Shown piece by piece: positions 3 to 25,367 of a stretch of 64,000 nucleotides of DNA (position 1 is its first letter; each line of letters opens with the position of its first letter). Origin of the DNA: an uncultured virus (IMG/VR IMGVR_UViG_3300025127_000026) (taxonomy: Duplodnaviria > Heunggongvirae > Uroviricota > Caudoviricetes > Crassvirales); IMG/VR virus record IMGVR_UViG_3300025127_000026. One strand, written 5' to 3'. A model generated the notes under the pieces. That model was not told where the DNA came from and searched no databases. It saw nothing but the letters and a program-made list of their open reading frames with translations. The translations under genes were made by a program, and so were the position numbers.

Positions 3-296
3 CAAGATCTTGAAAGACAACCTAAAAACAAGCTGCGTAAAGTAGTGTTTAAAGATGGGACAGGATTAGATAAAAAACAAAAGCTTAGTATTGTAGGACA
101 ATTAATAGGTAGAAAAAGTATGGATGAAGAAAGAATTTATCAATGTATGTTAGATTTACATGATATGGGTAAAAAAATAACTATAGGAAGGATAGCCGGA
201 CTATTAGACTGTTCAAGTAGAACAATACATAGAAATATGAGCTTAGAGCTAAAAAAAGAAAAAGATTTTTTAAATATAGAAAATGAAAAAATATAA
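3..296 (+). CDS. HTH DNA-binding protein, 5'-truncated by window edge
   Basis: Frame is open from position 3. C-terminal ITIGRIAGLLDCSSRTIHRNM resembles a helix-turn-helix. Confidence 0.6.
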   Translation, partial: QDLERQPKNKLRKVVFKDGTGLDKKQKLSIVGQLIGRKSMDEERIYQCMLDLHDMGKKITIGRIAGLLDCSSRTIHRNMSLELKKEKDFLNIENEKI

Positions 297-1035
297 TGTA
301 AAAAACTATATTAGATATAAAGAAGATGTTAAGCAATCTCAACCTGATGGAAAATTCTATGATGAATATACTAGAGGTGAATTAATAGTAAAATTCTTAC
401 CACTTGTAGAAAATATAAGTCGTAAATTTTCTACAGCACAGGAAGCTTCAGGCGTTATGTCTATTATGGATATAATACAAGAAGGTAGTTTACAATTATG
501 TAAAGCTGTAGATAAATTAAGTTGGGAAAAACTAGATGGATCTGATAATATAGAAACATCTTTAAAATCTTTTTTTGCTAAACGTATACGTGGAGGAATA
601 CGTAGAGAAATAGATAAAAACAGAGCTCAAATGAGAATACCAGAACACAAGCTTAACGAAATACGTAAAGACGGCGGAAGAGATAAAAAGATGGTTGCTA
701 TGTTTTTTAATTCTATGTTTCTAAGTATAGATAAAAAACCATACGATGATGAAGATATGTTATATCAAATACCTGATAAATCTGACCCGTACAATGAAGA
801 GATGTTAAATGCTTATATTATGAGCTTACTTATAAAACATCTTGAATGGAACGAAATGTTTACTCTTGAAAAAAGCTATGGTTTAACAGGTCCTAAATGG
901 TCTGCTAAAGAAATAGCTGATAAACTAGATATACGAGGAGTATCATCTTACGTAAGAGTTTCAGAGTTAAAAAAACAAGCTGTTAACAAGCTTATAGAAA
1001 ACGTAGATCACTCGCAAGTGGTTGATTTTCTGTAA
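283..1035 (+). CDS. phage sigma70-family RNA polymerase sigma factor
   Basis: Region 2-like ELIVKFLPLVENISRKF...DIIQEGSLQLCKAVDK...FFAKRIRGGIRREI...MRIP. Region 4-like HTH WSAKEIADKLDI...VRVSELKKQAVNKL. Confidence 0.85.
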   Translation: MKKYNVKNYIRYKEDVKQSQPDGKFYDEYTRGELIVKFLPLVENISRKFSTAQEASGVMSIMDIIQEGSLQLCKAVDKLSWEKLDGSDNIETSLKSFFAKRIRGGIRREIDKNRAQMRIPEHKLNEIRKDGGRDKKMVAMFFNSMFLSIDKKPYDDEDMLYQIPDKSDPYNEEMLNAYIMSLLIKHLEWNEMFTLEKSYGLTGPKWSAKEIADKLDIRGVSSYVRVSELKKQAVNKLIENVDHSQVVDFL

Positions 1036-1078: not shown

Positions 1079-1606
1079 ATGACAATTAATGAAAAATTAT
1101 CAAAAATCCAAGTAGAGTTTAAATCAAAGAAATCAAGATTTAACTCTTTCGGTAAGTACAATTTCCGTTCTGCCGAAGATATTCTCGAAGCAACAAAACC
1201 CTTTTTAAAGGAGCTAGGAGTTACAGTTACTGTAGATGAAGAACTAGTATCATTTGCCCCACCAGTTATGCAGGTTACTGCAACTGTATCCGATGGCAAA
1301 GAGACAATAAGTTCTAAAGCTGTAGTTGGTGTAGACTTAGATCAAAAGGGTATGCAAATGCCACAGAGATATGGTGCCGCAAGTTCATATGGAAAGAAAT
1401 ATGCGCTTGGTAATCTGTTCTTGATTGATGACACTCAAGACTCAGATGCAACTAACACACATGGTAAATCATCTGCCAAGCAAAAGATGACAAACGAATC
1501 GTTAGCTAAAGCTAAGGAGTACATCGCAAAAGGCGGTAGTCTAAAAGCTATTAAAGCTAAATACGAAGTAACACCTAAGCAAGCTGAATTATTAACCACA
1601 CTATGA
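1079..1606 (+). CDS. erf: ERF-family single-strand annealing protein
   Basis: K...NSFGKYNFRSAEDILEATKP and QRYGAASSYGKKYALGNLFLIDD..DSD are ERF-like motifs. Confidence 0.85.
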   Translation: MTINEKLSKIQVEFKSKKSRFNSFGKYNFRSAEDILEATKPFLKELGVTVTVDEELVSFAPPVMQVTATVSDGKETISSKAVVGVDLDQKGMQMPQRYGAASSYGKKYALGNLFLIDDTQDSDATNTHGKSSAKQKMTNESLAKAKEYIAKGGSLKAIKAKYEVTPKQAELLTTL

Positions 1607-2334
1607 AACGTGAAGAAATAATAGAAAAGCTTAGAATAGATGAGCATTATTACGGTGACTTTGGTAAACAGTATTTAAGTAATTCAGATATTAAATCATT
1701 ACTTAAAAATCCGTTAGCATTAAAAGAACCAAGTAAGACAAATGCACACTTCTTAGTAGGAGGCTATTTTCACACTGCAATACTTGAACCTAATAAAATT
1801 AAAAAGTATAAAATTATAGATTCAAGTTCTAGAAATACGAAAGTATATAAAGAAATGTCAGGAGGTGAAATGTGCTTGCTACAACACGAGGTTGACTTAA
1901 TTGATAATCTCATTTCCACGATGTTAAACAATAAAGTTTGTAGAGACTTGATAGCTGAAGAAAAAGGCGAATATGAAGTACCTGAAATAACTGAATTGTT
2001 TGGTCAAATGTGGAAAGGTAAAGCAGACGTTGTTAATCACAACGAAAAACTAATAATAGATCTTAAAACTACTTCTGATCTTGACAGCTTTAAATGGAAT
2101 GCTAAGAAATATAATTATGATTCTCAAGCATATATTTATAGAAAGCTATTTGGTTATGAATTTATATTTATAGCTATAGATAAAAAAACAGGTCAAATAG
2201 GTTTATTCGACTGCTCTGATAACTTTTACAGATCAGGTGAAGAGAAAGTTGAAAAAGCATCAGAAGCTTATGATCTATTTTATAATACAGAGGGATTTGA
2301 CCCTCACCAATATTTTATAAATCAAACATTATAA
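1603..2334 (+). CDS. RecE/ExoVIII-like PD-(D/E)XK exonuclease
   Basis: LSNSDIK, GGYFHTAILEP, KGKAD...IIDLKTT, YDSQAYIY. Confidence 0.8.
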   Translation: MKREEIIEKLRIDEHYYGDFGKQYLSNSDIKSLLKNPLALKEPSKTNAHFLVGGYFHTAILEPNKIKKYKIIDSSSRNTKVYKEMSGGEMCLLQHEVDLIDNLISTMLNNKVCRDLIAEEKGEYEVPEITELFGQMWKGKADVVNHNEKLIIDLKTTSDLDSFKWNAKKYNYDSQAYIYRKLFGYEFIFIAIDKKTGQIGLFDCSDNFYRSGEEKVEKASEAYDLFYNTEGFDPHQYFINQTL

Positions 2335-2654: not shown

Positions 2655-4367
2655 ATGCAAGTCGAAGAGATAGAAATAAATGGTTTTCAAATTGAAAACT
2701 TTAATCAGCACGGCTTAGACGTAGGTAAATCGCAGGGGACTTGTCCCCTGTGTTCTTCTTCTAGGAAACCTGAAAATAGAAAAGCAAAATGCGCTAGCTA
2801 TGATTGGGAACGTGGTCTTGGTACTTGTCATAACTGTGATAGCACTTTTCAACTACATACATATAAACGTAAAGGCAAAGCTGAGCGTGATTATATTATA
2901 CCTGAACAAACAAGCGTAGGTCAATTAAATGATAAAATAATAGACTGGTTTGAAACAAGAGGTATATCTGAACAAACATTAAAAGATGTTAAAGTAGGGG
3001 TTGGTAAAGAATTTATGCCACAGACCGGTAAAACCGAGAATACTATTCAATTTAACTATTTAGTTGGCGGACAGTTAACTAATATTAAATATAGAGACGC
3101 ACGTAAAAACTTTAAGTTATACAAAGGAGCTGAAAAAGTATTTTACAATATAGATAATATAGTAGGCTACGATGAATGTATTATAGTTGAAGGCGAAATG
3201 GATGTTTTAGCTTTACACGAAGCTGGAATACCAAATGCTATATCAGTACCTAATGGCGCTACACTAAATAGTAATAACTTAGATTATTTAGACAACTGCA
3301 TAGATTACTTTGAAGATAAGAAAAAAATAATTATTGCAGTAGATAACGATCCACCAGGTCAAGCACTACAAGCAGAACTTATACGTAGACTAGGTGCTGA
3401 AACATGTTATCTAGTTACATTTGATGATTGCAAAGATGCAAATGAGTATTTAGTTAAGTACTCTAGTAAAGAGCTATTGTCACGTATAACAAATGCAAAA
3501 CCAGTACCGTTAGAAAACGTTACTACATTTAGAGATATAGAAGATGAAATTACAGACTTTGTTAAAAATGGCTTTAAGCGCGGCTATACTGTTGGCCTCA
3601 ATAATTTTGACGATATATTTAGTACTTACACTAAACAATTTATTACAGTCACTGGCATACCTAGCTCAGGCAAATCAGATTTTGTAGATCAAATGTGTGT
3701 AGGTTATAATAAAGAGTATGGTTGGAAAACAGCTTTTGCTAGTCCAGAAAATGCTCCTACATATTTACACGCACACAAGTTAATGCGTAAAGTATGGGGT
3801 GATATGCCTAACAAGGGTCATATCGGCGGATCTAAATGGAATGAAGTAGCTAATCATGTTAATGATAACTTTTTTTTCATAGATATGGAACGCTACACTC
3901 TTGAATCTGTATTACGTAAAGGTGCAGAACTTGTTAAACGTAAAGGTATTAAATGTCTAGTTATAGATCCATTTAATAAAGTTAGAGACGTTGACTGTAC
4001 AACAGAAGACGTTAATAGATATACAATGGAATATCTAACTAAAATAGAAACTTTTGCAAAGAAATACGATGTACTAGTATTTATAGTAGCTCATCCTACT
4101 AAAATGTATAAAAACAATGAAGGCAAAATTGAAGAGCCAACTATGTATAACATCAAAGGTGGTGGTGAATGGTATGATGCTAGTTATCATGGTTTGTTAG
4201 TACACCGTGATTATGAAGCTAAGACAACAAAAGTTAAAATACTTAAATGCAAGTTCCAAAACCTAGGTGAAAACGGAGCAGAAGCCTTTTTTACATGGGA
4301 ACCACGGTCAGGATGTTTTGTACCTCACGTACAACCTGATTTAGAAGAAGCAATGCCATGGGAATAA
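2655..4367 (+). CDS. primase-helicase (T7 gp4/Twinkle type)
   Basis: Zn finger CPLC..CHNC, TOPRIM IVEGEMD/DND..G/KDANE, Walker A GIPSSGKS, DnaB-type LVIDP and VAHP. Confidence 0.95.
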   Translation: MQVEEIEINGFQIENFNQHGLDVGKSQGTCPLCSSSRKPENRKAKCASYDWERGLGTCHNCDSTFQLHTYKRKGKAERDYIIPEQTSVGQLNDKIIDWFETRGISEQTLKDVKVGVGKEFMPQTGKTENTIQFNYLVGGQLTNIKYRDARKNFKLYKGAEKVFYNIDNIVGYDECIIVEGEMDVLALHEAGIPNAISVPNGATLNSNNLDYLDNCIDYFEDKKKIIIAVDNDPPGQALQAELIRRLGAETCYLVTFDDCKDANEYLVKYSSKELLSRITNAKPVPLENVTTFRDIEDEITDFVKNGFKRGYTVGLNNFDDIFSTYTKQFITVTGIPSSGKSDFVDQMCVGYNKEYGWKTAFASPENAPTYLHAHKLMRKVWGDMPNKGHIGGSKWNEVANHVNDNFFFIDMERYTLESVLRKGAELVKRKGIKCLVIDPFNKVRDVDCTTEDVNRYTMEYLTKIETFAKKYDVLVFIVAHPTKMYKNNEGKIEEPTMYNIKGGGEWYDASYHGLLVHRDYEAKTTKVKILKCKFQNLGENGAEAFFTWEPRSGCFVPHVQPDLEEAMPWE

Positions 4368-4618
4368 AACCTAAATACACTGAATGTAAGCCTCCTGAAT
4401 GGACTAAGGAAGATTTAAAAGCTTACGGTTGGTGTGTTGAACATGGTATATACATATCTGCCTTAGCAGCAGCAAAAGGTAACTTTTGTAAAGACTGGTA
4501 TATACAAGTCGAAGCTAAAGGCAAGAAAGTCGTAAGTCCTAAAACATATGGACCAGATGACTTATATAAAAAAATATTTGAATTATATAGATTTTATTAT
4601 GATAAAAACACTAAATAA
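4358..4618 (+). CDS. hypothetical protein
   Basis: ORF overlaps both neighbouring genes. Confidence 0.6.
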   Translation: MGIKPKYTECKPPEWTKEDLKAYGWCVEHGIYISALAAAKGNFCKDWYIQVEAKGKKVVSPKTYGPDDLYKKIFELYRFYYDKNTK

Positions 4619-5312
4619 TAAATTTAGAGACGCAGATGAAGCTTTTCAGTACTGGTACCAATGTATAGAACATTATGGTCAAGACTTTGCAGGAACTAAA
4701 GCTATGTTTAATGTAGGATTTGAAATAAGTAATCCTACAAATAACATAATAAGAGCTCCATGGCGTAAATGGAAGTATAAGTATGCTGAAGCTGAATGGA
4801 GATGGTACTGGTCAGGTGATCGTAACATTAAAAAGTTAGGTGAACTTTACGGTAAAGTACCTGCAATATGGAAGCGTATGGCTGACGAACACGGAAATGT
4901 TAATTCTAACTATGGTTGGCAATGGAATAGAAACTCACAAATTGACTATGTGTTAGAAAAGTTAAAACGTGATCCAAATACTAGACAAGCTACAATTAGT
5001 ATATACGACGCTAAAGAACACTCATTATATGAGCGAGATACACCATGTACTTATGCAATACAATTTACAATTGTAAATAATATGTTGAATATGTGTGTTA
5101 CGATGCGATCTAATGATCTCTGGTTTGGTTTCTGTAATGATCAGTATTGTTTTACAGAATTACAAAAAATAGTTGCAGAGGAGACGAATTATGACATAGG
5201 TACATATTATCACTTTGCGCATAATCTACATTTATACGAACGAGATCTTGGTAAATTTTTACCGCAAAGATCTAGTTCTTTGTTACAAAGTAAGTGGGAG
5301 GAGTATGGATAA
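4599..5312 (+). CDS. thymidylate-synthase-family enzyme, dCMP hydroxymethylase-like
   Basis: NSNYGW, catalytic PCT, MRSNDLWFGFCND (Asp at the substrate-specificity position), NLHLYE. Likely start is ATG 4599. Confidence 0.8.
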   Translation: MIKTLNNKFRDADEAFQYWYQCIEHYGQDFAGTKAMFNVGFEISNPTNNIIRAPWRKWKYKYAEAEWRWYWSGDRNIKKLGELYGKVPAIWKRMADEHGNVNSNYGWQWNRNSQIDYVLEKLKRDPNTRQATISIYDAKEHSLYERDTPCTYAIQFTIVNNMLNMCVTMRSNDLWFGFCNDQYCFTELQKIVAEETNYDIGTYYHFAHNLHLYERDLGKFLPQRSSSLLQSKWEEYG

Positions 5313-6138
5313 AGAAATAATATATTATTTATACCACATTCCGGGTAAAAAGATAGGCGTAACACGTAATCTTAATAAGAGAGTTACACAGCAACAGGGA
5401 TATGCCCTAGACGAATACGAAGTTCTAGATCAAAGCACAGACATCGATTATATATCGAGCCGCGAGTTAGAACTTCAAAAGTCTTATGGCTATAAAGTAG
5501 ACCTTAAACCTTATAAACAATTATATAAAATGAAAATTAACGCAACAGAACAAACCTCAACGTTTCCTGTACCATTAAACAAACTAAAAGGTAGATTAAT
5601 GGATGAAATAGGTAAAAAATGGGAAACAATGCATGGAACTTTTGAACTAACTAAAGAAACGGTTCAGTGGATAATGGAAAATGCTTCAACATCTATGTTT
5701 AATAAAAATAGATCTTATATATATAATAAAGCTTTTTATGAAAAGTTTTTAAATGAAGCTAAACTTGAAGCTCAATTTTTTTATAATCAAATAAAAGATA
5801 GAGCAAATACTCAAGTTAAACAAAACGGCAAAGCTTGGATTGATGAAGATAGATTTAAACTTATAAGAGAGTGGGCGGATAATAGAGGATTATACAAAGG
5901 TGGAGATAAAAAAACTCAATATTGTAAGTTAATAGAAGAAGCCGGCGAACTTGGTAGAGCTATATTAAAAGAGGATCAAGATGAATTTGTAGATGCTATA
6001 GGTGATATGGTTGTAGTGTTAACTAACTTAGCTCATTTAGGCGGAGTTACAATTGAACATTGTATTGATATAGCTTATAACGAAATTAAAGATCGTAAAG
6101 GTGGTATGGTTAACGGAACATTTGTGAAAAATGGATGA
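5305..6138 (+). CDS. fusion of GIY-YIG-like N-terminal domain and MazG-like NTP pyrophosphatase
   Basis: N-terminal YYLYHIPGKKIGVTRNLNKR. C-terminal WADNRGL...KLIEEAGEL...DAIGDMVVVL...AYNEIKDRKG. Confidence 0.8.
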   Translation: MDKEIIYYLYHIPGKKIGVTRNLNKRVTQQQGYALDEYEVLDQSTDIDYISSRELELQKSYGYKVDLKPYKQLYKMKINATEQTSTFPVPLNKLKGRLMDEIGKKWETMHGTFELTKETVQWIMENASTSMFNKNRSYIYNKAFYEKFLNEAKLEAQFFYNQIKDRANTQVKQNGKAWIDEDRFKLIREWADNRGLYKGGDKKTQYCKLIEEAGELGRAILKEDQDEFVDAIGDMVVVLTNLAHLGGVTIEHCIDIAYNEIKDRKGGMVNGTFVKNG

Positions 6139-6203
6139 TACAGCTTTTGCTATATTACTAGCTCAAGGTATAGGAATTTTATTAATTTTAATTATGTATT
6201 ATT

Positions 6204-6467
6204 ATGAAAGAAAAAACAATTAAATTTAGAGATCCAGTTGTTGAAACTGTTGTAGATAAGTTTGTATCAAGATCAGATGTAGGCTATGCTAAATACGGGC
6301 AAACGTTAGATAATGAACGTAAAACTGGAGTTAAAGATCTTGCAGCATATTTAAACGACGTGCAAGAAGAACTAATGGATGCAATACTATATATTCAAGC
6401 TGCACGTGACGAATTAAACGGTAAGAGAATTGGTTTACCTTATTACGTAACTGATGTTGCGTCGTAA
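6204..6467 (+). CDS. small all-alpha NTP-PPase/MazG-fold-like phage protein
   Basis: GYAKYGQTLD...QEELMDAILY contains an EExxD acidic motif. Confidence 0.55.
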   Translation: MKEKTIKFRDPVVETVVDKFVSRSDVGYAKYGQTLDNERKTGVKDLAAYLNDVQEELMDAILYIQAARDELNGKRIGLPYYVTDVAS

Positions 6468-6897
6468 GAAACGAGGTCCTGTTCGTGCTAAGAAAAAGAT
6501 TGTTGATGGAATAGAATTTAAGTCAGGACTAGAAGCTTATATGTATAAAGCTTTAAAAGAAGCTAAAATAAAAGCTAAGTATGAAGGGGTTAAATATGAA
6601 ATTGCCCCTTCATTTGACTTTAAAAATAAATGTTATGAAAGACAAAGCAATGGAAAGGGCGAGTACAAAGATCGTGGAAGCAAAAAAATACTTAAAATCT
6701 CTTACACACCTGATTTTACAGGAAGGGGATTTATCATTGAGTGTAAAGGAAGGGCAAACGAATCTTTTCCTATACGTTGGAAATTATTTAAGAAATATGT
6801 CAGCGAACGACTACGTGGCGTTACTTTATATAAACCACAAAATCAAAAAGAATGCGACGAAACCGTGAGCTTAATACTTGGGAAAAGAAAGACTTAG
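6454..6897 (+). CDS. T7 endonuclease I-like Holliday junction resolvase
   Basis: FKSGLE, YE, YTPDF, IIECKG motifs. Confidence 0.85.
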   Translation: MLRRKKRGPVRAKKKIVDGIEFKSGLEAYMYKALKEAKIKAKYEGVKYEIAPSFDFKNKCYERQSNGKGEYKDRGSKKILKISYTPDFTGRGFIIECKGRANESFPIRWKLFKKYVSERLRGVTLYKPQNQKECDETVSLILGKRKT

Positions 6898-7025: not shown

Positions 7026-7230
7026 AATCGATGCAATGACAAGAGTCATGCAACAAGTTATAAATGAAATATCCCATTTAAGAGAGCTAGGTGTTGGAAC
7101 TCTTGAAACGGTAAAACTAATGCCGGGATATGAAGACGCCATCAATAAGTTAAAACTAAAGATGGAAGAAGAAGTTAAAGAAAAGAAAAAAGTAAAAGAT
7201 AATGGAAATATCAAATCAGATACTAAGTGA
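6991..7230 (+). CDS. hypothetical coiled-coil protein
   Basis: ORF overlaps the RNR start. Confidence 0.6.
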   Translation: MKENTLLEMKNKIDAMTRVMQQVINEISHLRELGVGTLETVKLMPGYEDAINKLKLKMEEEVKEKKKVKDNGNIKSDTK

Positions 7231-9064
7231 CATAACAGTTTACATGAAGTATGCAAAATACTTACCTAGTTTAAACCGTAGAGAAACATGGAAAGAATTA
7301 GTAAAACGCAATATGGACATGCATATTAAAAAGTACCCTGATTTAGAAAAAATAATTAAAGAAAAATACAAACTAGTATATGAAAAGAAAGTTTTACCAT
7401 CTATGCGATCGCTTCAGTTCGGAGGTAAGCCGATTGAAATATCACCTAATCGTGTTTATAATTGTGCTTACTTACCTATTGATCATATTGAATCGTTTAA
7501 TGAGATAATGTTCTTATTATTAGGTGGTACTGGTGTAGGTTATTCTGTACAGCAACACCATGTAGATAAATTACCTGGTATTACAAAACCATATACTAAA
7601 AGAACTAGAAGATTTTTAATAGGTGACTCAATTGAAGGTTGGGCAGATGCTATTAAAGTATTAATGAAATCATATTTAGGTGACAAAAGAAGTTCACGAA
7701 TAGAGTTTGATTACTCTGATATACGCCCTAAAGGCGCATTGTTAGTAACGTCTGGTGGCAAAGCACCAGGACCTCAACCACTTAAAGAATGTATAGTAAA
7801 AATAACAGGAGTCTTAGATTCAAAGGAAGAAACAGATATGCTCTCCACTTTAGAAGTACACGATATAGTTTGCCATATTGCAGACGCCGTATTAGCTGGT
7901 GGGATACGTCGAGCAGCTTTGATAAGTTTATTTTCAGCAGGCGATGATGAAATGATATCTGCCAAGTCTGGAAACTGGTGGGAAACAAATCCACAAAGAG
8001 GTAGAGCTAATAACTCTGCCGTACTAATGAGACATAAAATAACTAAAAAGTTTTTTATGGATCTTTGGAAACGTGTAGAATTATCCGGAGCTGGTGAACC
8101 TGGAATTTACTTTAATAACGACAAAGACTGGGGTACAAACCCTTGTTGTGAAATAGCTTTACGACCATATCAGTTTTGTAACTTATGTGAAGTAAATGCT
8201 AGTGATATTGAATCACAAGAAGATTTAAATGAACGAGTGAGAGCTGCTGCCTTTATAGGTACATTACAAGCAGGTTATACAGACTTTCACTATTTAAGAG
8301 AAATATGGCAACAAACAACAGAGAAAGACGCTTTAATAGGCGTCTCGATGACTGGGATAGGCTCGGGGACGGTGTTAGGATACGACATGCAAAAGGCCGC
8401 AAGCATAGTGAAAAAAGAAAACGCAAGAGTCGCGAAGCTGATTGGAATTAATTCAGCTGCAAGATGTACAACCGTAAAGCCTGCTGGGACGACGTCTCTG
8501 GCATTAGGAACGTCATCTGGTATTCATGCATGGCATAATGATTATTATCTCCGTAGGATCAGGGTTGGTAAGAACGAAAGTATATATAAATATTTACTTG
8601 AAAACCATCCACTGCTAGTTGAAGATGAATTTTTTAGACCTCACGATACAGCTGTAATTAGTGTACCACAGAAAGCTCCAGCTGGATCTATACTTAGGAC
8701 TGAATCACCTTTTCAATTACTTGAACGTATAAAAAAAGTAGCTACAGAATGGGTTTTACCTGGTCATAGAAAAGGATCTAATACTCATAATGTATCTGCT
8801 ACAGTTAGTTTAAAACCTGAAGAATGGCAAGACGCAGGAGAGTGGATGTGGGACAACAGAAAATATTATAATGGCTTATCTGTACTACCTTTTGATGGTG
8901 GAACTTACACTCAAGCTCCTTTTGAGGATATTGACGAAGGAACTTATATAAATAGGTTACAACATTTAAAAGATATAAATTTAGAAAATGTACTTGAATC
9001 CGAAGACAACACTGATCTTTCTGGCGAGCTTGCTTGCGCTGGCGGTTCTTGTGAAATTAACTAG
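7202..9064 (+). CDS. nrdJ: class II (adenosylcobalamin-dependent) ribonucleotide reductase
   Basis: YNCAY, GTGVG, RRAALI, TNPCCEI, TTVKPAGT, C-terminal CAGGSCEI. No small-subunit gene nearby. Confidence 0.9.
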   Translation: MEISNQILSDITVYMKYAKYLPSLNRRETWKELVKRNMDMHIKKYPDLEKIIKEKYKLVYEKKVLPSMRSLQFGGKPIEISPNRVYNCAYLPIDHIESFNEIMFLLLGGTGVGYSVQQHHVDKLPGITKPYTKRTRRFLIGDSIEGWADAIKVLMKSYLGDKRSSRIEFDYSDIRPKGALLVTSGGKAPGPQPLKECIVKITGVLDSKEETDMLSTLEVHDIVCHIADAVLAGGIRRAALISLFSAGDDEMISAKSGNWWETNPQRGRANNSAVLMRHKITKKFFMDLWKRVELSGAGEPGIYFNNDKDWGTNPCCEIALRPYQFCNLCEVNASDIESQEDLNERVRAAAFIGTLQAGYTDFHYLREIWQQTTEKDALIGVSMTGIGSGTVLGYDMQKAASIVKKENARVAKLIGINSAARCTTVKPAGTTSLALGTSSGIHAWHNDYYLRRIRVGKNESIYKYLLENHPLLVEDEFFRPHDTAVISVPQKAPAGSILRTESPFQLLERIKKVATEWVLPGHRKGSNTHNVSATVSLKPEEWQDAGEWMWDNRKYYNGLSVLPFDGGTYTQAPFEDIDEGTYINRLQHLKDINLENVLESEDNTDLSGELACAGGSCEIN

Positions 9065-10152: not shown

Positions 10153-10295
10153 TACTTTTTCTTTTTAACTGGTCTACAAGCAGGTACCATTTTTTTGCCT
10201 TTCTTTTTCATAATAATTTTACCACTTTCATCTAAAGCAGTATAACCATCCCAACAAGGGTTTTTGTCTCTTTTTGTTCTTTTTTTTGTTGCCAT
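10152..10295 (-). CDS. 47-aa basic protein (absent from ORF track)
   Basis: MATKKRTKRDKNPCWDGY...KKMVPACRPVKKKK, TAATG-coupled on both sides. Confidence 0.7.
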   Translation of the reverse strand: MATKKRTKRDKNPCWDGYTALDESGKIIMKKKGKKMVPACRPVKKKK

Positions 10296-13200
10296 TATTT
10301 CTGTAATTCTAGTATTTTTCTAACTCTATCACCTTCATATTTTAAGGCTTTTATTTCATCGTCAGACAAACCAAGTGATCTAAGTGAATCTTTTTGTTCT
10401 GCCGCGGGTAATTCATATAGTTTTAATTCTTGAGCGTTACGTTTTTCAACAGGTACTCTATTGTTTTTAAAACTAGTATTTTCTGTAAAATTAACTTTAT
10501 TAGGTTTAGGTATAGTATCTGATTTTACTTTTTTAGGTGTAGATTTAACTTTAGGTTTAGGTTCTACCTCTATTGGTGTTATTGATTTAACATCTTTTAT
10601 TTCATCAGATTTAACATTAGGTATTTTAGAAGTATATGTTTTACCTGAACTTGCTTGAGCAGCTAGTATTGCTGTTACTCTTTGATCTTGTGTTTTTAAA
10701 CCTTTAATTTGCTCAGGCGTAAATCCATGTTGTCTTAATATATCTTCTTGTTCTGCTTTATTATATAAGCTTGGTTTTTCTATAGCTCTATAATAATGTT
10801 TAGCATCACTTTCTTTTTCTTCTCTTTTTTCTTGTTGTGATTTAGATTCAAGTTGCCACTCAGACCAACCAGCAAGCTCAAATAAACTTTTCCAAGTTTC
10901 TTGTTCTTCTGTCATTGCGTCTTTTACATTTATCATTTTCTGTAGTAATCTATCTAAAGGAAGATTAGTAATAGAAGCAGTAATCAAAGCTCCAGACATG
11001 TAAAGTGGATTTTCAATATTAAAATAATCTTTAGTTGCAGGTGAATCCATATTGTACTCATACGTGTTCATACCTCTAACAAACTTAGAAACTTTAACAT
11101 CCAATGGTGGAGCTATGTTTAAAGCTTCAAAAACAGACTTATAAAACTCAGGTCGAGGTTTTTCTTCATTAGTTGCGCGATCATATAAATCTAATCCTAC
11201 GTCTTTTATTGCTGACATTATAGACCCTGCAACACCCATACCTCTCATTAAACTAGTTAACATACCATTTAATGTAGCTATAGTTTTTTCATCTAAATCT
11301 TCTGGATCATCATTACCAATTGCAGCAAAAACAGCTTGTTGTAAAGCATTAAACATCATATTTTGTATTGCACCATAATATAATATTCTTGATATATTAC
11401 TTTTGTAATCTCCTCTACCATTAGTTAGATCAGATATTGCTTTACCTATTAATCTATTGTATTGCATAGGTGTATTAGCAAAAGCTAAAATAACTCTACC
11501 TAAACCACCAGCTTGCTCAGATGATATTTCCATAGCGTCTGATGACTGTTGAGCTTCTCTTGATAAAGAAGTCCACTCTTCATAAGCTTGAGCGGTTGCT
11601 TCTTCTTTATCCATTCCTTTACTTACTAAATCTTTAATTCTGTTTCTATAATAAGTAGCTCCACCTGAAGCAATAGCAAAGCTATCAGCGATCTGTGTTA
11701 TACTAAATCCTTTTCTTATTAATAGATTTAAAAACTCTTTAGCTTTATTTCCTTTTGAATTTTGTATATCAAATATTTCACTTTCTGATACATTTATTTT
11801 CATTCCACCTCTTCTATCAACTAAAAAGTCAGAATTAAATAAATTCATAAAGTCTTTCCAATACTGAGGTTGATTTGCAAATGCAGCAGCTGCTTTAGCT
11901 GGATTATTAAAACTCCAGTTTATATAGTTAGCCGCAGATAAAGTTTGTAATATACCTGATCTCATATTAAAGAACATTACCGCTCCAACAGAATTATTTA
12001 ACCAGTCATAAAATCTATTTTCTCTTTGAGTATTACCCATTCTTCTATTCCTACCTGACTTCATTCTACGCAACATATCTTCAAAAGATTGTCTATATTT
12101 AGAACCATAAGTCGATTCAATAGCGTTCATCAATTGACCATTAAATCTACTTCCGTTGTCTTTTCCAAATATTGTTTCTATATTTTGACTCCACTCAGCT
12201 AAAACTTTAGGTCTTTTAATTTTTGTAATACCTTGTAATAAATCATTTAACATAGTTCCAGCTCTCCAATTTGCTCCTGGATAGTAATAGTCATCTCCTT
12301 TATTAATTTTTATTAATTGAGAAGCCATTTTGTCTATAGCCATGTTAGAAGTACTTAATGCTCTAATTTTTTCCATTGTAGTTTTAGGAACTCCTTCTGC
12401 CACTATACCTTGTTTATCCCATGCTAATATTCTAATTGCATCTTCATAAGTATAACCTCCTAAACCAGGCACCGCATCATTTAATTTTTGTATAGGTTTT
12501 CCAGATCCTACAAAATTTTCTAAAGTGGCTTCAAAGTCAGCTAATAAAGTATTTTTAATAGCTGCTAATTCATTTAAAGCTCTTGTATATGGCCTAACTA
12601 AATTATCTTTTAAAAAATTCCAGTCATCATTACCCTCTTGGCCTTTACCTAAAAATTTATATAGTAAACCTGTAAAATTTTGAGTTGATGATCTTGCTAA
12701 TATGTTTTCTTTTATATCACTACCTTTTATTTCAGCTTTTATATCTGATATATTTTCTAACGCTTCCTTACTTAGTTTTTTATTTTTAGACGCGACCATA
12801 GTAAATAATCTGTCTGCTATTTTTTCTCCATCTAGAGCAAACCTTTCTTTAGCTTGCTGTACTTGAGATTTAACATCTACTACATTTAACACGTCTTGCA
12901 CAGCTTCAACATTCTGAGGAGCATCGTCGCTAAAGTAAAAATCATTAAAACCTTCACCAGCTTTTCCTACAAACCATTCTGCTTTTGCTTGTGGACTACT
13001 ATTTCCTAATCCAATTATGTTTCTAAGTGGAATATCAAAACCTTCTGACTTTAACCAAGCTTGTATAGCTTTAGCAGCTTCTGGAGCACGAGCAGTTAAT
13101 ATCATTATTTCTCTTTCACCTTCCGCCTCATACATTTTTCTAAACAAATCTAACATAGGACCCTTCTCAGGATCCACGACTCTATTAAAGTCACTAAAAT

Positions 13201-16200
13201 CAAACTCTCCACCAGCTTCTCTTATTCCATCTCCTAACGTTGCAAATCCTTCTGCTGTTAGTTCCCCAGTTGATCCATCAGGCATAGTATAAAATACTTT
13301 ACTATTTGTTTTAGCTAAAGTATCATCAAAATCAAATACCCTAAGTTTTCTTAATTCTGGCATTTTACTTCTAGCATTAATCAAAGCTGCATCTAATGTA
13401 GCCATTTTGCCTAATACTTCAGGTCCAGTTAAATCACCTTCCATTTCCATTACACCCGCATCTTCTACAGCATCATTGTTTGACTCCTTGGTTGCTTGAT
13501 CAGCTTCTATACTGTTTGTAACCGCTTCTTGTATTTCTTCGTCTGTAATTATATTTTTTTCAACTTCTTCTTGTACGTCAAGATTAGGATCTGAAACACT
13601 TACTTTATCTGGAGTTCTTGGTAAATTTGAAACTCTTATATAATCAGTAGCGTCTGTTGTACTAGTTTTATCATCTACTTTATCTGCTTCAACTTTTGTT
13701 GTGTGAGATTGATCGTACTTTCTTAATGCTAATTCGTTTTGATTTGAAAAAGATTCTAATATACCTTTTCTTTCTTGTTCACTTTTAGCATTTTGTAATT
13801 TAGCTGCAGTTTCTAAAGTACTAACACCTAAATCTGCAAAAAGATTAGAAGCTACATCTATATGTTCTCCTTTATAATTTAACTTTTTAGCTATAATTTC
13901 TTGTTGTTTTTCTACATCATTAGGAGCTTTTTCTTTAGCTTCTTTTTCAGCTTCATTATATCTTGGATGATTATAATTTACAACAAAATCTCCAGATTTT
14001 TTATCAGCAGCAGATAAAGCGTTTTTATATTTACCAGTATTAGGATTATAAAATGCAGCTTGAGGTCCTGCTAGAACTTCCATATTGGCTAATCTTGATA
14101 AAGCTCTTAAAGATTTAGTATTGTTGGTCATTGTTTCTAACCAGCGCAAAAACCCAGGTATTAAACTATTATCTTGTGCTATCGCTTGAGCAGACTTGTT
14201 TAAAATATAATCTATAGCTTTAATATTAGCTACATTTGCTTTTTGTAGTTGATCAAATATTCCACCTGGTTTTACTGTACCATCTTCATTTATTCCTAAA
14301 AGAGTTCTTTTACCTTTTATTAATTTACCATTTTCATCAGTAGTATCTTCAAGTGCTAGATCTTTATCTAAAATAGTTTCAGCTTTTGATAATATACCAG
14401 AAGTAGCGTTAATTAATCTTATATCTTCAGGAGTAAAATCTAATTCTTCATTCTCATTTAGCTTTGCTACAATAGCATTGATTTCATCTAATTCATTTTT
14501 ATATGGACCAAACTTTTCACCTTTACCTCTACTCTTATCTCCGCCGTCCAAGTATCCATACATGTAACTGAAAAAGTTAGAACCACCTAGAGCTTTAGCA
14601 ACTTTGCTATTTAGTCTAGCCATAACATCTTTAGCGTAGTTATGTATTTCCTGCATAGCTTCAGGAACACCTCTACCTAAACTTTGAGTTTGTGTTTCGT
14701 TTACTTTTCTAGCTTCTATTTTATAATTCTCAGGTATTTTAGCTTTTTCAATTAAATCTTTTATTTTCTTTTTATAACCTGTAGCTTTAGTTCTAAATAA
14801 CTGCTTTAACCTATCAAATATAGGAGCATATATACGTAGTAATTCTGGATCTAATAATTCTAACTCATCATCAAAAGCATCAATTTGTATTTGTGGATCT
14901 TTAGTAGCTTTATCGTAAGCTCTTTTTACCGCACCCATAATCTGCTTTCTAACAGTGTCAATGTCTTTAGCTGTTATACCTAAAGCAAATCTAGCCCTTG
15001 GGTCTCTATCTAACAAGTAACCTATTTCTTCTGCTAACACATCAGCTTGACCAAGTAATTGGTTACGCTCATTAAACATGTCCATTACATCTTGATCTGT
15101 TAACACTTCCATTGTAGCATCAAGACCTAATACTTTTGCTAACGTTTGAACTAGTTGTGTTTTCTTGGTGTATTTAGTTCCTTTTGCTCCAACACTTTTA
15201 GGATCTGTATGGTACTTTATCCATTTTTTTTTGTTATAAGGTTCTTTAGTATAAATAAAATTACCGGCGGTTTCTTTTGTTTTAGACTTTGATCTTGTAA
15301 TTTTACCTTCTGATTCAGCTTCTCTAGTACCTTCAACATTTAATCTATCACCTTTTACTATAAAGTCTTGAAAAGACTTATTCATAATACTTTGAGGCAT
15401 TATATCGTATATTTCCTCACCATAAGTATCTAGAAAAGCTTCAACTCCTCCCATGTCATCTATTAGCTTTCTAACAGCTTGTTCACCGTTTAATGCGTAA
15501 GCATCTTGTAAAGCTTTTTTAAGATCACCAGACTCTAACGTAGGTAATTTACCTCTGAATGTATCTTGTACAGATTTTTTTATATCTTCATAAACATCGC
15601 TACCAGGTATTAAACCTATAGCTTGCCTCATATTTATAAACTTAATAGGCGCAGCGTCTTTAATTAAAGCATCATCTTGAGTTACGGCTCCTTGATCAAG
15701 CAGACTTGGACCTTCTTCGTTGTCTCTTTTTTCTAAAGCATATTTTTTAACTAATGGATCTACTACTTGCTGCCATCTTTTTATAAGGTCACCTTGTAAC
15801 TTAAGGTGAAAAGGCATATCTTTAAATTTAGGACCACGCTTAAAAAAGTTATTGTATATATCAGAAAACTCTTTACTTCTTAATCCTTCTTCAATCTCTG
15901 ATCTTGGTACTGCAACTTTTATTTCTTCACCATCTTTAGTCACAAAAGTACCAATGTATTCGTTTCCTTTCATTTTAGAGTTAACAACCCATTGAACTAT
16001 AGGCTCTCTATTATCTTCTATAAGTTCATTTTCTGCTCTTCTCTTTGCACTTAATTTAGAATTAGGATCTTCTATTATAGCAACATTGTCCGCGTTTTTA
16101 GAAGTTCTTTTATCTCTTTTTTGTGCTTTACTTAAGCTTTCGTTTATGTCTTTTATACGATCTTGAGTTGCATCTATTTCTTTTTGATTTTTAGCTTTTC

Positions 16201-19200
16201 CATCTGCAACTAGGTCTTTGATACGATCTATTAATTTTTTCTTTTCATCTTTCATTGCGTCTAAAGAAAACCTTTCATTAACCTCTGCTTCTGACTCTAC
16301 TTCTGCTTCAGGCATAGCTTGATCAATTGGTTCAAGAATACTAGGTGGAGTTTTTCTTTTAGGTCTTCTACCTGGCGATCTTTTTACTTTTTTTGGTTTA
16401 TCAGGTAATACAGTTTTAGCGATCTCAGTAGCTTGCTCTACATCACCCTCAGCCATTAAATCTAGCAACTTCATTAACTCACCATCATTATCTAAATTTA
16501 ATTGTATTGAGTTATCAGTTTCAGCTCCAACAAAATTATTTATAGTTTGTTTTATTTTATCTAATATAGGCTTTTTAAATTCAGCTTTACGCTTTCGCAT
16601 AAAATCTCTTAAATTAGCTATTTGCTCATCAGCTACAGCAACAGGATCATCTGGAAACAAGTTCATATACTCGTCCATTTTATCTTCAAACTCTTTTTTA
16701 TCTTTTTTGCTTTTAAATACAATATCTCCATTTGCTATGGCTTTATCTATATCTGCAGCTATTTCTAATGTAATATCTTTACCTGCTATTTTTTCTAATT
16801 GTTCAGTAAAAAAGTGATCTGCTTCATGTTCAAAATCTAAAACTAGCACACCATCATTTTTATTAGCATTAATCAAAGCTACTTCTTTATTAAAGATCAT
16901 TGGTCCACCATCTTTAATAAACAACGCTGGTTGAGGTATTCCGTTTGCAAATATACTTGAACCATTTTCATTAGCTATAGCTTCTGCTTCTTCTGTTGTT
17001 TCAGCAACAACAACATTAACATCTTGCTCTTTCATTTTATTTAAAAACTCTTCAGCTTTAGTGTCAAATTCTTGAGCTTGTTCGCTTATAAACTCATCTT
17101 GTATATTACCTTCGTCGTCTGTTAATTTGTTAGTAAGATCAGTTATTTGTTCTTCAACATTCTCTAATTCTTTTTCTAACTCAACTTTTTTATTTTCTGG
17201 ATGTACTTTTTCTAATTCTTGCTCTAAAAAGTATTTATCTTTTTCTAGTTGAAACTGAGTTAATGATTCTTCTACGTCAAGCTCTAAGTCTACTTTTTGC
17301 ATAATGTCATGAATGGTTTTAACCTTTTCTTTAGACTTGTTAGCTAAATCTTGAGCTTCTTGAATTTTTTCTTTTTTCTCTTCTTTTGTTAAATCTTTTC
17401 TTTGTTTTATTTTTGATATTTTTTCTTGTAGCTCTTGATCAATCTGCTTCACAAAGTTATTTTTAACTTTTTCTATTTTTAGTAAAGCTACATTTTTAAA
17501 TTCATCTTTTAATTGATTGTAAGTTAAATCAGCAGCTTTTTTACTAGACATTATGTTAACCGACATCATACTGCCTTCTAATATACCTATTCCAGCTAAA
17601 GAAACTACGGCAACATCTTTTAGTCTAGCCATATGTTCTGCAGTCCCAAATTCAGTAGTACCATAAAGCTCAGTACCTATCTCTTGTACTTTATCATCCA
17701 TGGCTAGCTCTATAAACATGTTCATTTCCTCTTGCAAAACCTCATCAGCTACGTTAAAAGCTGTAGATGATGCACTTTTTATCAAGCCTCCATTTACCAT
17801 GTTTCTTATTTCTTGATCTATAAACTGTCTAAATGTTTGGCCTGGAGCTCTTTTCTTTATAGCTTTGTTAGTAAGTAAAACTGCTAGTTTAGGCATTACA
17901 CCTTTTCCAGCTATAAAGTCGATACCTATTTTATCCATAGAAGCTTCAATAACAGGTTTAACTAGCTCTATAACTAATAAATCTCCAGAATCTAAAGGAA
18001 ACTCTTTACCTGGATTTTTCTTTTTCCAATCTTCAATTAACTCATTAGTTTCAACAACACCATCTTGAACCAATCTAGCCATAATTGTTATAGGCATGTT
18101 CTCTGTTATAACTAGCTGTGCTAAAGCGCGTTTGTTTATTTTCCCAGTTTTATAAGCATCTATAATAATATTATTAGTTTCACCTACCATTCTTCTATTT
18201 GTAGGACTTGTAGCCCAATCAATTCCTTTTGCAAGTTTAGTTGCTCTTCCTGCTGCACTTAAACCTTTAGTACCTATAATATCCATAGTAATATCAATAA
18301 GTAAACCTACAGTTTTACCAGCAAAATGGTTTTCAATATCAATTTCAGCTAAATCAAAACGTTCTAAATCACCTCCTGGTTTAAATTTAGATCCTTCTAT
18401 TACTTTGTCAGTTTCTGTAGCGATATAATCACTTAGATTATGAACAGCGTCTGCATATTCCCTTAGAGCATTAGCAACAGAATTACCATCATCATCTACC
18501 GCGTCTATCATCGATGCTATAACTCTCGTACCCGCCTCATTTAATAATAGCACTAATTCACCCAAGCCAGGTATTATTTTTATAACGTTACCCATTACTC
18601 TATTAACGCCCCAAGCAATAGCTTGAGCCCAAGTGGTGTCTTTGTCTTTTAATGCTTGAAGTATTTGTTCATCAGCTTCTGCGGCATATTCCATTAATTG
18701 TGGTATTTGCGCTAAATTAAGATTAGCTAAATTATTTAAATAATCTAACTTTTCTTTTTCTTTTTTGTACTGATCGTGTAAATCTATTTTTTTAACATTA
18801 TTTTCTATTGCAACATCAGGCATAGCCATACCTCTAATAGTTGGAGAACTAGCTCCTTCTGATATAATAGAAGGAATACCTCCTGAGTCATCAAATCTAG
18901 TTGCTTTTGGAAATACTATTTGTAATTCAGAATTAGGTGATTTTAAAATTGTAGTTTCTATATCAACACCATCCATCATCATGTCAATACCTGAATCCCA
19001 ATTAGATTTATCTATAAAAATATCATTACCAGCTTTATCTTGATAGGTTATTGTATAGTCTGACAAAGACAAATTATTATAGTCTGTTAGTATTTGTTTA
19101 TAATTTTTTCTACTTATTTCTACTAAATCTATTCTGCCATTTATTTCTTCTTCTAGCTCTTTAGTTGGGTTTTTATTAAAATCTTCTTTTAAGCTGTTTA

Positions 19201-23597: not shown

Positions 23598-25367
23598 TTA
23601 TGATGACATAACGTATTTTGTCCCTATTGACCAAAGTTCTTTTAAACCTCCTACGTTTGTAGATTCATCAGTTGATATTTTTGCGGTTAAAAAATAACCT
23701 TTAACACCACTCATTTGAGATCCGTAAATTATCTCTCCAGGCCTAACAGTGCTTCTATTTATTAAGTTAGCTACATACAGATTTTCTTTTCTATCAAAAC
23801 CAGCTCTTTGTGGAAATCCATTTAATGTATATAATCCTTCATCGTAACTAGCTATAGATATAAATTGATTACTTGAAGTAGAGTCATTATATTGATTTAA
23901 GTCTACATAATTACCTGGATTAGTTATAGGTAAATCAGGATCAACTCTTTGTATATCCGAATTTAAATATACAACTTCAAAACCATTATCACCTTCGTAG
24001 TTAACTGTTTGAAATACTTTTTTAGTAGATGGTTGAGTATTAACTACAAAAACTATACTTGAAGGATTATTAATATTATAAAAAGTTCCTCTATTATTAA
24101 TTACGTCTGTAGAGTAATGTTTCCATAATTTACCTTGTTTAAAGCTATAAAAATTACCTTTTAAACTGAAATAATCTGTAGGTCTATAAGTATAATAACT
24201 ATTCCATCCTCGAACTTCTTCATCAAAACTTAAAGTACTTGTGTTTTTAATTTCTAAAGGTGTATTTAAAAACGAAAACTCTTCTATCATATCACTTAAT
24301 AAAGCTTTTTGATACGATATAGTATATTGTTTATTAAAGTTATCCCACGCACCTATCACTCTATCTTTTATATATTTAAAAAATACAAAAGATATTGTAG
24401 CGTTTTCAAATTCTAACTGCTCGCTTAATTCTACTTCATTTGTAGCATAATTTATATCTACAATATAAGCTTGCGTTTCAAGAGAATCTACTCTCACACC
24501 CATGCCTATTTCTAATCCTGTTAAATCTGGTGAAATAACAAACGATGAAGCTGGCGCGGCTGGAGGATTTAAACATTCTTTACTTATTTGATAAACTTGA
24601 AAATCATCTTCTATTAGTCCGCTTTGATCTCTTATAAAGTCATTTAATCCAAAATCCGATATGGGTGTTAATCCATCTCTAGATAATCTCATTACTTTAC
24701 CTCTGTGAACATCTGAAAAATATTGTCTAAAGCCAAACCAAGCAAAACTCTCAGGATTTTTACTTATACCATAGTCACCTTGAAATGGAACGTATTGACC
24801 TAAAACCATATTTGTAGATGTAACATTAGCACTTCCTTCAGCTGTATACAAAGCGTCTTTATCCACCAATAAATAACCTGTTTTTCTTTCTTGAAATACT
24901 GTTAAATTACTATCAGAAGTATACATTTGTTGTATACTACCGTAAAAAGGGTCAACTGATTTAGTTATTTGTTCGCCTATGGAAAAAACATTAGTTTCGT
25001 TAAAGCCTGTTCTAGAATTAAAAACTCCAGAATATATTAATGAATTAGATCTATGTAATTGGTTAGGATTATCTACATTAGCATAAGCTCTAACGCCTAA
25101 ACTAACTATAGTTTCATTAAATCCACCTTGTATTCTAGATTCTTCAATTAACCAGTTTCTATTTCTAACATATTCTCCTACTTGAGAATTATTTCTTGTT
25201 TCAATAAAACCAGGAAAATTACCATATCCACAAGGTCCATACCATATACCAGGAAATACTCCCACCCAAGGATTATACAATAGCGGGTTATTAGTAGATA
25301 TCATTCCTGTTTTCTTACCTACAAATGTGTTATAAAAAGATATGGGTATTTGTGCTGCTCCGCTCAT
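23598..25367 (-). CDS. tail/stabilisation (nozzle-like) protein
   Basis: YGISKNPESFA...YFSD..RGKVMRLSRDGLTPISD; located in the structural module. Confidence 0.65.
   Translation of the reverse strand: MSGAAQIPISFYNTFVGKKTGMISTNNPLLYNPWVGVFPGIWYGPCGYGNFPGFIETRNNSQVGEYVRNRNWLIEESRIQGGFNETIVSLGVRAYANVDNPNQLHRSNSLIYSGVFNSRTGFNETNVFSIGEQITKSVDPFYGSIQQMYTSDSNLTVFQERKTGYLLVDKDALYTAEGSANVTSTNMVLGQYVPFQGDYGISKNPESFAWFGFRQYFSDVHRGKVMRLSRDGLTPISDFGLNDFIRDQSGLIEDDFQVYQISKECLNPPAAPASSFVISPDLTGLEIGMGVRVDSLETQAYIVDINYATNEVELSEQLEFENATISFVFFKYIKDRVIGAWDNFNKQYTISYQKALLSDMIEEFSFLNTPLEIKNTSTLSFDEEVRGWNSYYTYRPTDYFSLKGNFYSFKQGKLWKHYSTDVINNRGTFYNINNPSSIVFVVNTQPSTKKVFQTVNYEGDNGFEVVYLNSDIQRVDPDLPITNPGNYVDLNQYNDSTSSNQFISIASYDEGLYTLNGFPQRAGFDRKENLYVANLINRSTVRPGEIIYGSQMSGVKGYFLTAKISTDESTNVGGLKELWSIGTKYVMSS

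Follow-up and report, generated by a model that had tools for sequence, protein, structure and literature searches.

A TS-like gene predicted to encode a dCMP 5-hydroxymethylase, overlapping a T5orf172-like/MazG fusion gene, in an uncultured Crassvirales phage

The uncultured phage record IMGVR_UViG_3300025127_000026 (Crassvirales, IMG/VR) carries a thymidylate synthase (TS)-like gene whose 237-residue product we predict to be a deoxycytidine monophosphate (dCMP) 5-hydroxymethylase. We analyzed a window of 64,000 nucleotides (nt), the whole stretch of DNA introduced above, which represents almost all of a phage genome of about 64.7 kb. Our overall reading, which we regard as probable from the sequence, is that the enzyme makes 5-hydroxymethyl-dCMP (5hm-dCMP) and that a MazG-domain protein encoded by the adjoining gene may act as a dCTPase. 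Cytosine C5 chemistry on a deoxynucleotide is the most secure part of this reading and appears highly likely from the active-site residues; the same residues make hydroxymethyl the quite likely product. By analogy with known systems, the phage most likely incorporates 5-hydroxymethylcytosine (5hmC) into its own DNA, where it may replace some or all of the cytosine. The first-pass annotation of this DNA had proposed modification of cytosine in the nucleotide pool to 5hmC, 5-methylcytosine (5mC) or a related base; the pool-level modification is supported here, and the choice of base is narrowed, since the residues favor 5hmC over 5mC and 5-hydroxycytosine.

The protein is a TS homologue by family and fold, matching PF00303 (E 1.5e-27, 96.8 bits against a cut-off of 24.3) and phrog_160, “thymidylate synthase” (E 7.5e-44). 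As the first-pass annotation expected, the name thymidylate synthase is the one used by PHROGs and by the JGI labels of several family members. The best relatives in the PDB are nevertheless cytosine hydroxymethylases, namely the cytidine monophosphate (CMP) enzyme MilA (5b6d, E 1.4e-18) and the dCMP enzyme T4 gp42 (1b49, E 3e-17), and ThyA structures rank lower (Bacillus subtilis ThyA 1bko, E 2.2e-15; Escherichia coli ThyA, E 4e-12). Seven NCBIfam ThyA equivalog models match the protein, none of them at its cut-off (best 82.2 bits against 327). The family is a large one, with at least 7989 database proteins at E 1e-10 or better, many from ocean surveys, and 314 IMG/VR stretches encode a TS-like relative.

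To describe the active site, we use E. coli ThyA numbering (ThyA taken from NC_000913) in an alignment with the products of E. coli thyA, RB69 td, T4 gene 42 and RB69 gene 48 and the phage TS homologues of SPO1, phiW-14, M6, PaMx74, VPE25, ATCCB, AB434P2, MW202657 and BF503P2. The signature of the window protein is E58, Y94, R126, D143, C146, T147, R166, S167, D169, D177, H207 and Y209, and the protein equals T4 gp42 at 14 of the 15 active-site positions compared; the sole mismatch is at R127, which is Gln here, as it is in SPO1 gp29 (Q127). The MRSNDLWFGFCND motif reported at nt 5103 to 5141 is present as residues 169 to 181, as is NSNYGW (residues 102 to 107). The T4 gp42 counterpart cited in the first-pass annotation is verified by a HMMER alignment to PDB 1b49, in which “mrsndvvfgfrnd” stands opposite the first motif and “insnygw” opposite the second. 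The features of the gene are as follows.

4599-5312, plus strand: TS-like gene, 237 amino acids (aa), PF00303; predicted dCMP 5-hydroxymethylase
5037-5048, plus strand: codons for D147-T-P-C150 (ThyA positions 143 to 146; acidic where ThyA has L143, and C150 is the catalytic cysteine); T151 (position 147) is next
5103-5141, plus strand: MRSNDLWFGFCND motif with R166, S167, D169 (folate-type) and D177 (cytosine selector); D177 is D181 of the protein itself, nt 5139-5141

The residues at the discriminating positions compare as follows.

Window protein: 143 D, 146 C, 147 T, 167 S, 169 D, 177 D
T4 gp42 (5hm-dCMP): 143 D, 146 C, 147 T, 167 S, 169 D, 177 D
ThyA (E. coli, RB69 td): 143 L, 146 C, 147 H, 167 S, 169 D, 177 N
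SPO1, phiW-14, M6 (dUMP hydroxymethylase-type): 143 D, 146 C, 147 N, 167 S, 169 D, 177 N
RB69 gp48 (5-hydroxy-dCMP): 143 E, 146 C, 147 T, 167 S, 169 N, 177 D
PaMx74 (5mC phage): 143 N, 146 C, 147 P, 167 S, 169 D, 177 D; ThyA-like RSSDVFVGLPYD motif

What these positions signify is taken from earlier reports. An N177D change gives a preference for dCMP, and enzymes with hydroxymethyl products tend to have an acidic residue at position 143 (Lee et al., NAR 2026, PMC13326640); positions 177 and 147 are the best discriminators between metavirome contigs with and without cytosine modification (Yang et al., eLife 2021, PMC8670742); and Ser167 with Arg126 marks the deoxy-specific enzymes, where the CMP-specific MilA has Ala176 and Lys133 (PMC5175136). 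The deoxyribose-type Ser167 and Arg126 are both present in the window protein. The Asp claimed at the ThyA N177 position is confirmed, and because it occurs together with every other published dCMP hydroxymethylase marker, nucleotide-pool modification of cytosine at C5 is the best reading of the gene. The signature is also essentially invariant in a set of 201 sequences, consisting of the window protein, the proteins of 80 IMG/VR loci and 120 collection proteins, not all of them independent. D143, C146, T147, R166, S167, D169, Y94 and R126 are found in 201 of 201, D177 in 200 (the remaining sequence has Tyr), and C146, Glu58, Tyr94, Arg166, His207 and Tyr209 in 200 to 201 each.

The gene that follows overlaps the TS stop by 8 nt and encodes a protein of 277 residues, for which we used an alignment of 57 homologues, an AlphaFold model (mean predicted local distance difference test score, pLDDT, 82) and a Pfam scan of 51 family members. 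The first-pass annotation had two MazG-fold proteins following the TS-like gene. Only this first product is demonstrably MazG, and the product of the 87-aa open reading frame (ORF) downstream has no detectable link to MazG; moreover, the MazG domain of the first accounts for just the last ~100 residues of a three-part fusion. The alignment and the model delimit four parts when the linker is counted, an N-terminal domain, a middle domain, a variable linker and the MazG domain.

5305-6138, plus strand: 277-aa gene, T5orf172-like/MazG fusion
5305-5499, plus strand: N-terminal ~65 residues, T5orf172/MUG113-like (GIY-YIG superfamily), by sub-threshold Pfam matches, motif and topology
5530-5739, plus strand: middle conserved domain, residues ~76-145, a conserved block modeled at pLDDT 85-92
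5836-6138, plus strand: C-terminal domain (residues 178-277), a MazG nucleoside-triphosphate pyrophosphohydrolase by fold and a proposed dCTPase

The MazG assignment is firm at the level of fold and ligands. The domain scores above the cut-offs of PF03819 (26.8 bits against 22) and PF01503 (24 bits against 21.3), and the metal ligands of the EExxE...ExxD motif (E211, E212, E215, D230 and D234) are invariant in 57 of 57 sequences. A VIA comparison aligns 81 of 83 residues with 1vmg (Z 9.6, root-mean-square deviation (rmsd) 2.4), the top 11 VIA rows are all MazG or HisE proteins, and Foldseek gives a TM score of 0.79 (normalized to target length). Mouse and human DCTPP1 are among the Foldseek matches at ranks 12 to 26, no higher than other MazG proteins. 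By analogy, we tentatively propose that this domain is the dCTPase of the pathway, an assignment nearly as apt to be right as wrong.

For the N-terminal domain, PF10544 (T5orf172) matches 37 of the 51 family members at E up to 1 (best 1.2e-4), the window protein itself reaching E 0.013 and 16.4 bits, below the cut-off of 20; PF13455 (MUG113) matches 30 of the 51, likewise sub-threshold. The AlphaFold model predicts a beta-beta-alpha-beta-alpha topology for residues 1 to 65, and Y7, Y10, K16, G18, T20, R26 and E54 are invariant in the 57-sequence alignment. The ESM Atlas clusters nearest to the first 165 residues are stand-alone viral proteins of 145 to 193 aa, 12 to 48% of them with T5orf172 (score 0.97), and a profile search of the N-terminal 170 residues against the PDB gives chance-level matches only (E 0.15 and above). 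These features point to a probable nuclease or homing-endonuclease-derived module, and a T5orf172 domain is described as acting as a nuclease in phage ICP1 (PMC8263062). The middle domain has invariant T84, T86, F87, W106, W122, Y140 and N141; it is barely sampled by the fold searches, as the match lists for the 277-aa protein are filled by the MazG domain. None of the 1086 deposited phage records with this MazG type covers ≥80% of the 277-aa query, and on these sequences the fusion of a nuclease-like module with MazG stands alone among the elements of the system in lacking a described counterpart in the deposited phages searched.

In all 80 IMG/VR loci the TS gene has a MazG homologue downstream of it. 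Seven loci on other phage backbones have a stand-alone MazG of 94 to 100 aa adjoining the TS gene; in one of them (L036, 5745-6937) TS is followed by MazG, and in another (L017, 5477-7378) TS, dCMP deaminase and MazG are consecutive. Both of these also have, ahead of the TS gene, a gene for a DUF6378 protein (PF19905, E about 1e-13). In four RNA-library runs from two studies, contigs from relatives, mostly 85 to 95% alike, fall across the module, and two reach across the TS/MazG junction (5105-5558 and 5105-5742); because DNA carry-over is possible, these contigs are not evidence of transcription. The 24 public runs listed for the sequence all consist of assembled contigs.

Several observations weigh against the proposed hydroxymethylase pathway. 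The closest characterized enzyme, T4 gp42, matches weakly (phmmer E 3e-17 over residues 61 to 215), and the position-143 rule that separates methyl from hydroxymethyl products is a published correlation; PaMx74, the 5mC-type enzyme compared here, has Asn at that position rather than a bulky hydrophobic residue. In a maximum-likelihood tree of 27 rows the deep nodes are weak and the branches long, and the window family forms its own clade (support 90/87) rather than being placed with T4 gp42. The 80 linked loci are not 80 independent events because they come mostly from one syntenic lineage. Judged by terminase, the closest deposited phages are MW202828.1 and a Flavobacterium elemo phage; PF00303 is missing from both, and no primase-helicase homologue is found in either. 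The MazG type occurs in 1086 deposited phage records (unsorted by TS content), many of them Streptococcus-, Staphylococcus- or Enterococcus-named, so the domain need not be a dCTPase. ORFs of the window were also scanned with Pfam and PHROGs for the remaining enzymes of such a pathway. The reported absence of a glycosyltransferase from the window holds by both, and the scan finds no carbamoyltransferase, deaminase, dut or deoxynucleoside monophosphate (dNMP) kinase among the ORFs scanned, nor any recognizable DNA polymerase, despite a primase-helicase, ligase, Erf, exonuclease and ribonucleotide reductase. A strict Walker-A scan for a nucleotide kinase returns only the primase-helicase and a chance match in an amidase. 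With no dNMP kinase, glycosyltransferase or DNA polymerase found in the window, the steps after 5hm-dCMP are left without an identified phage enzyme.

Approximately unbiased (AU) tests were applied to groups that were named after the tree was seen. A single clade of all signature-sharing rows including T4 gp42 is not rejected (p-AU 0.363), whereas union of the window family with the dUMP (deoxyuridine monophosphate) hydroxymethylases is (p-AU 0.016); forcing the family together with ThyA and PaMx74 costs 24.3 log-likelihood units, a borderline result (p-AU 0.050). The three dUMP hydroxymethylase-type homologues cluster together (support 95/88), and PaMx74 groups with true ThyA (98/92). The phylogenetic check proposed earlier, against ThyA and the two hydroxymethylase classes, thus separates the family from the dUMP enzymes and does not unite it with T4 gp42, and it neither proves nor contradicts the call made from the residues.

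The alternative that survives best accepts the hydroxymethylase and denies that its neighbors are pathway partners. In that case the MazG domain would be a house-cleaning nucleoside triphosphate (NTP) pyrophosphatase or dUTPase, the T5orf172 part a fused homing-endonuclease remnant and the 87-aa ORF unrelated; we consider this quite possible, if on the doubtful side. The abundance of the MazG type in deposited phages fits it, as do the absence of the fused architecture from all of those records and the lack of a dut gene in the window, a gap that a dUTPase role would fill; so do the stand-alone viral proteins that resemble the N-terminal 165 residues and the description of T5orf172 domains as typical of putative homing endonucleases (PMC8263062). 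Yet the TS and MazG genes are neighbors on three or more distinct backbones, with TS-MazG and TS-deaminase-MazG as minimal arrangements among them, the TS and 277-aa genes overlap, and co-occurrence of TS with PRA-PH/MazG is reported as enriched on cytosine-modified contigs (PMC8670742). Furthermore, all 57 sequences keep the invariant N-terminal Tyr, Arg and Glu, and this conservation favors a retained function.

A second alternative, a dCMP methyltransferase of the Xp12/PaMx74 type in a phage that replaces cytosine with 5mC, we judge rather improbable. Asp177 is common to homologues that make 5mC, and Asp177 enzymes may also be dCMP methylases, Xp12 and PaMx74 being phages that carry 5mC; Asp177 alone does not establish hydroxymethylation because five of the seven deaminase-linked metavirome TS homologues assayed made 5m-dCMP (bioRxiv 10.1101/2024.12.05.627091). 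In the comparison at the other positions PaMx74 is our single 5mC-type reference, Xp12 having been left out. PaMx74 combines N143 and P147 with a ThyA-like GLPYD and clusters with ThyA, whereas the window protein has D143, T147 and FGFCND, as T4 gp42 does; the forced union with ThyA and PaMx74 carries the likelihood cost given above, and the window has no dCMP/5mC deaminase.

It is very unlikely that the protein is an ordinary thymidylate synthase or that it hydroxymethylates dUMP or the ribonucleotide CMP, even though family members are labeled “thymidylate synthase” in their sources and MilA is nominally the top PDB match, for ThyA's N177, H147 and L143 are all replaced, the seven ThyA equivalogs stay far under their cut-offs, the dUMP hydroxymethylases have N177 and union with them is rejected, and MilA's Ala176/Lys133 pair is Ser/Arg, the deoxy type, in the window protein (PMC5175136). 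Least likely of all is a flavin-dependent 5-hydroxy-dCMP synthase of the RB69 gp48/DLP3 gp80 type, starting a pathway to ether-linked glycosyl-cytosine, since for all the TS fold, D177, acidic 143 and T147 held in common with it and the recent finding that diverse viral TS homologues produce 5-hydroxy-dC, the D169N change that is diagnostic of these flavin-binding enzymes is missing (D169 in 201 of 201 family members against N169 in RB69 gp48), G173 and the FGF region on the folate side are T4-like rather than gp48-like, and no glycosyltransferase accompanies the gene (PMC13326640 for the enzyme class).

As a dCMP 5-hydroxymethylase, the TS-fold enzyme would attack C6 of dCMP through Cys150, methylene-tetrahydrofolate would donate the one-carbon unit, and the exocyclic methylene would be resolved by water rather than by hydride, giving 5hm-dCMP. 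The MazG domain, from the translationally coupled next gene, would turn dCTP (perhaps dUTP) into the monophosphate and so both feed the hydroxymethylase and deplete the canonical dCTP pool. Host kinases, or kinases not recognized here, would phosphorylate 5hm-dCMP, which would then be built into phage DNA, and DNA containing 5hmC would be guarded against restriction.

This scheme follows the T4 paradigm and matches the published metavirome association of TS with PRA-PH; it is not a new mechanism. The likeness to T4 gp42 (EC 2.1.2.8, PDB 1b49/1b5e/6a9a) extends over the TS fold, the active-site residues, the NSNYGW and MRSND..FGF.ND motifs and a short C-terminus that lacks the ThyA tail, and in both phages a nucleotide pyrophosphatase is encoded alongside the hydroxymethylase. 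In T4, gp42 works alongside the dCTPase gp56, the dNMP kinase gp1 and glucosyltransferases. The window pyrophosphatase differs from the gp56-type protein in being a MazG domain fused to a T5orf172-like module, and, in contrast to T4, the window has no detected dNMP kinase, glucosyltransferase or DNA polymerase. Homologues of the dCTPase and the dNMP kinase are listed for RB69 and DLP3 as well (PMC13326640). The TS homologues of the MetaGPA study (PMC8670742) share with the window protein Asp177, a non-His residue at 147 and a PF01503/PF03819 pyrophosphatase on the same contig, the contigs being described as coming from environmental (sewage, coastal) viromes; the TS-deaminase-MazG locus on another backbone also has the dCMP deaminase of that network, whereas neither carbamoyltransferase nor deaminase was found in the window. 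What the present analysis adds is that the residues, as read from the sequence, exclude the 5-hydroxy-dCMP and PaMx74-type 5mC classes, and that a single MazG domain is detected, as part of a fusion with a T5orf172-like module.

The closest deposited phages whose TS homologues have the same signature are Enterococcus phage VPE25, Lactobacillus phage ATCCB and Bacteroides phage BF503P2 (34 to 45% identity). The homologues of VPE25 (L098, 3995-6353) and ATCCB (L099, 3989-5893), at 34 to 35% identity, differ in adjoining annotated beta-glucosyltransferases, a T4-type arrangement that has no equivalent in the window and that implies, on gene content, that VPE25 and ATCCB DNA would contain glycosylated 5hmC. 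The ATCCB homologue also lies beside a UDP-galactopyranose mutase. The best deposited match to the window protein is copy b of BF503P2 (45.1% identity over 97% of the query), which is annotated as a dCMP hydroxymethyltransferase. That phage differs from ours in having a second, more divergent TS copy and a dut gene; its two homologues (L001, 3109-3915 and 5989-6669) both have D177 and flank the dut gene, and the more divergent copy has Leu for the conserved Glu58 and Leu at position 173. In Agathobaculum phage AB434P2 (L100, 3838-4500) a “deoxyuridylate hydroxymethyltransferase” has aligned Asp177 and Thr147, a cytosine-type signature, and this annotation is probably wrong about the base. A literature search returned no paper joining a hydroxymethylase with a Cellulophaga phage, or a dCMP hydroxymethylase with a marine Flavobacteri- phage.

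The TS-like gene sits within a tightly packed replication operon on the plus strand, whose other members are listed here.

283-1035, plus strand: sigma-like factor at the head of the replication operon (phrog_351, E 1.3e-15; Sigma70_r2 just under its cut-off)
1079-1606, plus strand: Erf
1603-2334, plus strand: exonuclease
2655-4367, plus strand: primase-helicase
4358-4618, plus strand: 86-aa ORF overlapping the TS start by 20 nt, with no Pfam or PHROG match
6204-6467, plus strand: 87-aa ORF, a conserved orphan predicted to form a helical hairpin
6454-6897, plus strand: DUF1064 nuclease
7202-9064, plus strand: class II ribonucleotide reductase

Of 80 related loci, 49 have a homologue of the 86-aa ORF ahead of the TS gene, and 69 have the 87-aa ORF. 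The latter has at least 7997 database relatives, with a Pfam domain in none of the 120 listed, and a large-collection profile search finds only close, unnamed relatives. Its predicted structure is a helical hairpin, and its invariant residues are D10, R23, S24, G27, K30, Y31, E38, D52, Q54, E55, E56, D59 and Y63. Neither the window protein nor 52 family members match Pfam, and a profile search against the PDB yields no match below E 1.5. A MazG identity gained no significant support (hhalign probability to the MazG alignment 2.3%), nor did DUF6378 (2.5% to the L036 DUF6378 protein); the C-terminal “DNLLDAIAYL” of DUF6378 is loosely like “EELMDAILYI” of the 87-aa ORF, a similarity that is insignificant in the same profile comparison. 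Fold searches of the 87-aa protein are similarly empty (Foldseek best E 2.9; VIA best Z 4.6, tied with coiled coils), and the one putative NTP pyrophosphohydrolase that VIA returns (Z 4.0, rmsd 6.3) is tied with coiled coils too.

Elsewhere, G+C along the window is 29 to 36%, and in relatives the gene corresponding to the one after the window's last ORF lies ~0.7 kb from the gene at the window start. The terminase is 63% identical to that of the uncultured podovirus genome MW202828.1 and 45% to those of Flavobacterium “elemo” phages, with Cellulophaga phage records also among the matches, and megablast of the first 20 kb of the window against deposited phages gives zero matches. A 587-aa ORF (52472-54235) was considered as the missing DNA polymerase and rejected, having no PDB sequence match and fiber- or lectin-like Atlas neighbors. 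A giant 3641-aa ORF (10295-21220, minus strand) matches no Pfam family, and its sole PHROG match is a polynucleotide-kinase-like stretch (residues 2615 to 2804); near it, a 589-aa protein (23598-25367, minus strand) ends in a crAss “muzzle” domain (PF25729, E 1.3e-7), and together the two suggest a crAss-like virion module with a cargo protein. The phage also encodes a GroEL (517 aa, PF00118, E 5.6e-58) and a GroES (86 aa) at 50009-51806 on the minus strand, and another ORF whose N-terminal part is GroES-like (phrog_13932) is recorded with them, the coordinates given for this GroEL/GroES group being 50009-51806 (minus strand) and 41527-42228 (minus strand).

An extended version of the model, which we consider improbable, would make this a stripped-down system of cytosine replacement, in which a ~64-kb marine phage with no recognizable DNA polymerase, dNMP kinase or glycosyltransferase swaps cytosine for 5hmC by means of two dedicated proteins. 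The fusion would unite two T4 functions that exclude cytosine, joining a nuclease that destroys unmodified host DNA (the EndoII role) to a dCTPase (the gp56 role), and the abundant orphans of 87 and 86 aa would serve as novel accessory factors. If the dCMP 5-hydroxymethylase prediction itself is true, marine phages of this lineage would commonly have 5hmC in their DNA, which would bear on restriction and CRISPR evasion at sea and on sequencing and cloning bias in viromes. It would bear equally on the annotation of these genes, now labeled thymidylate synthase, for which the active-site residues offer a cheap rule of re-annotation.

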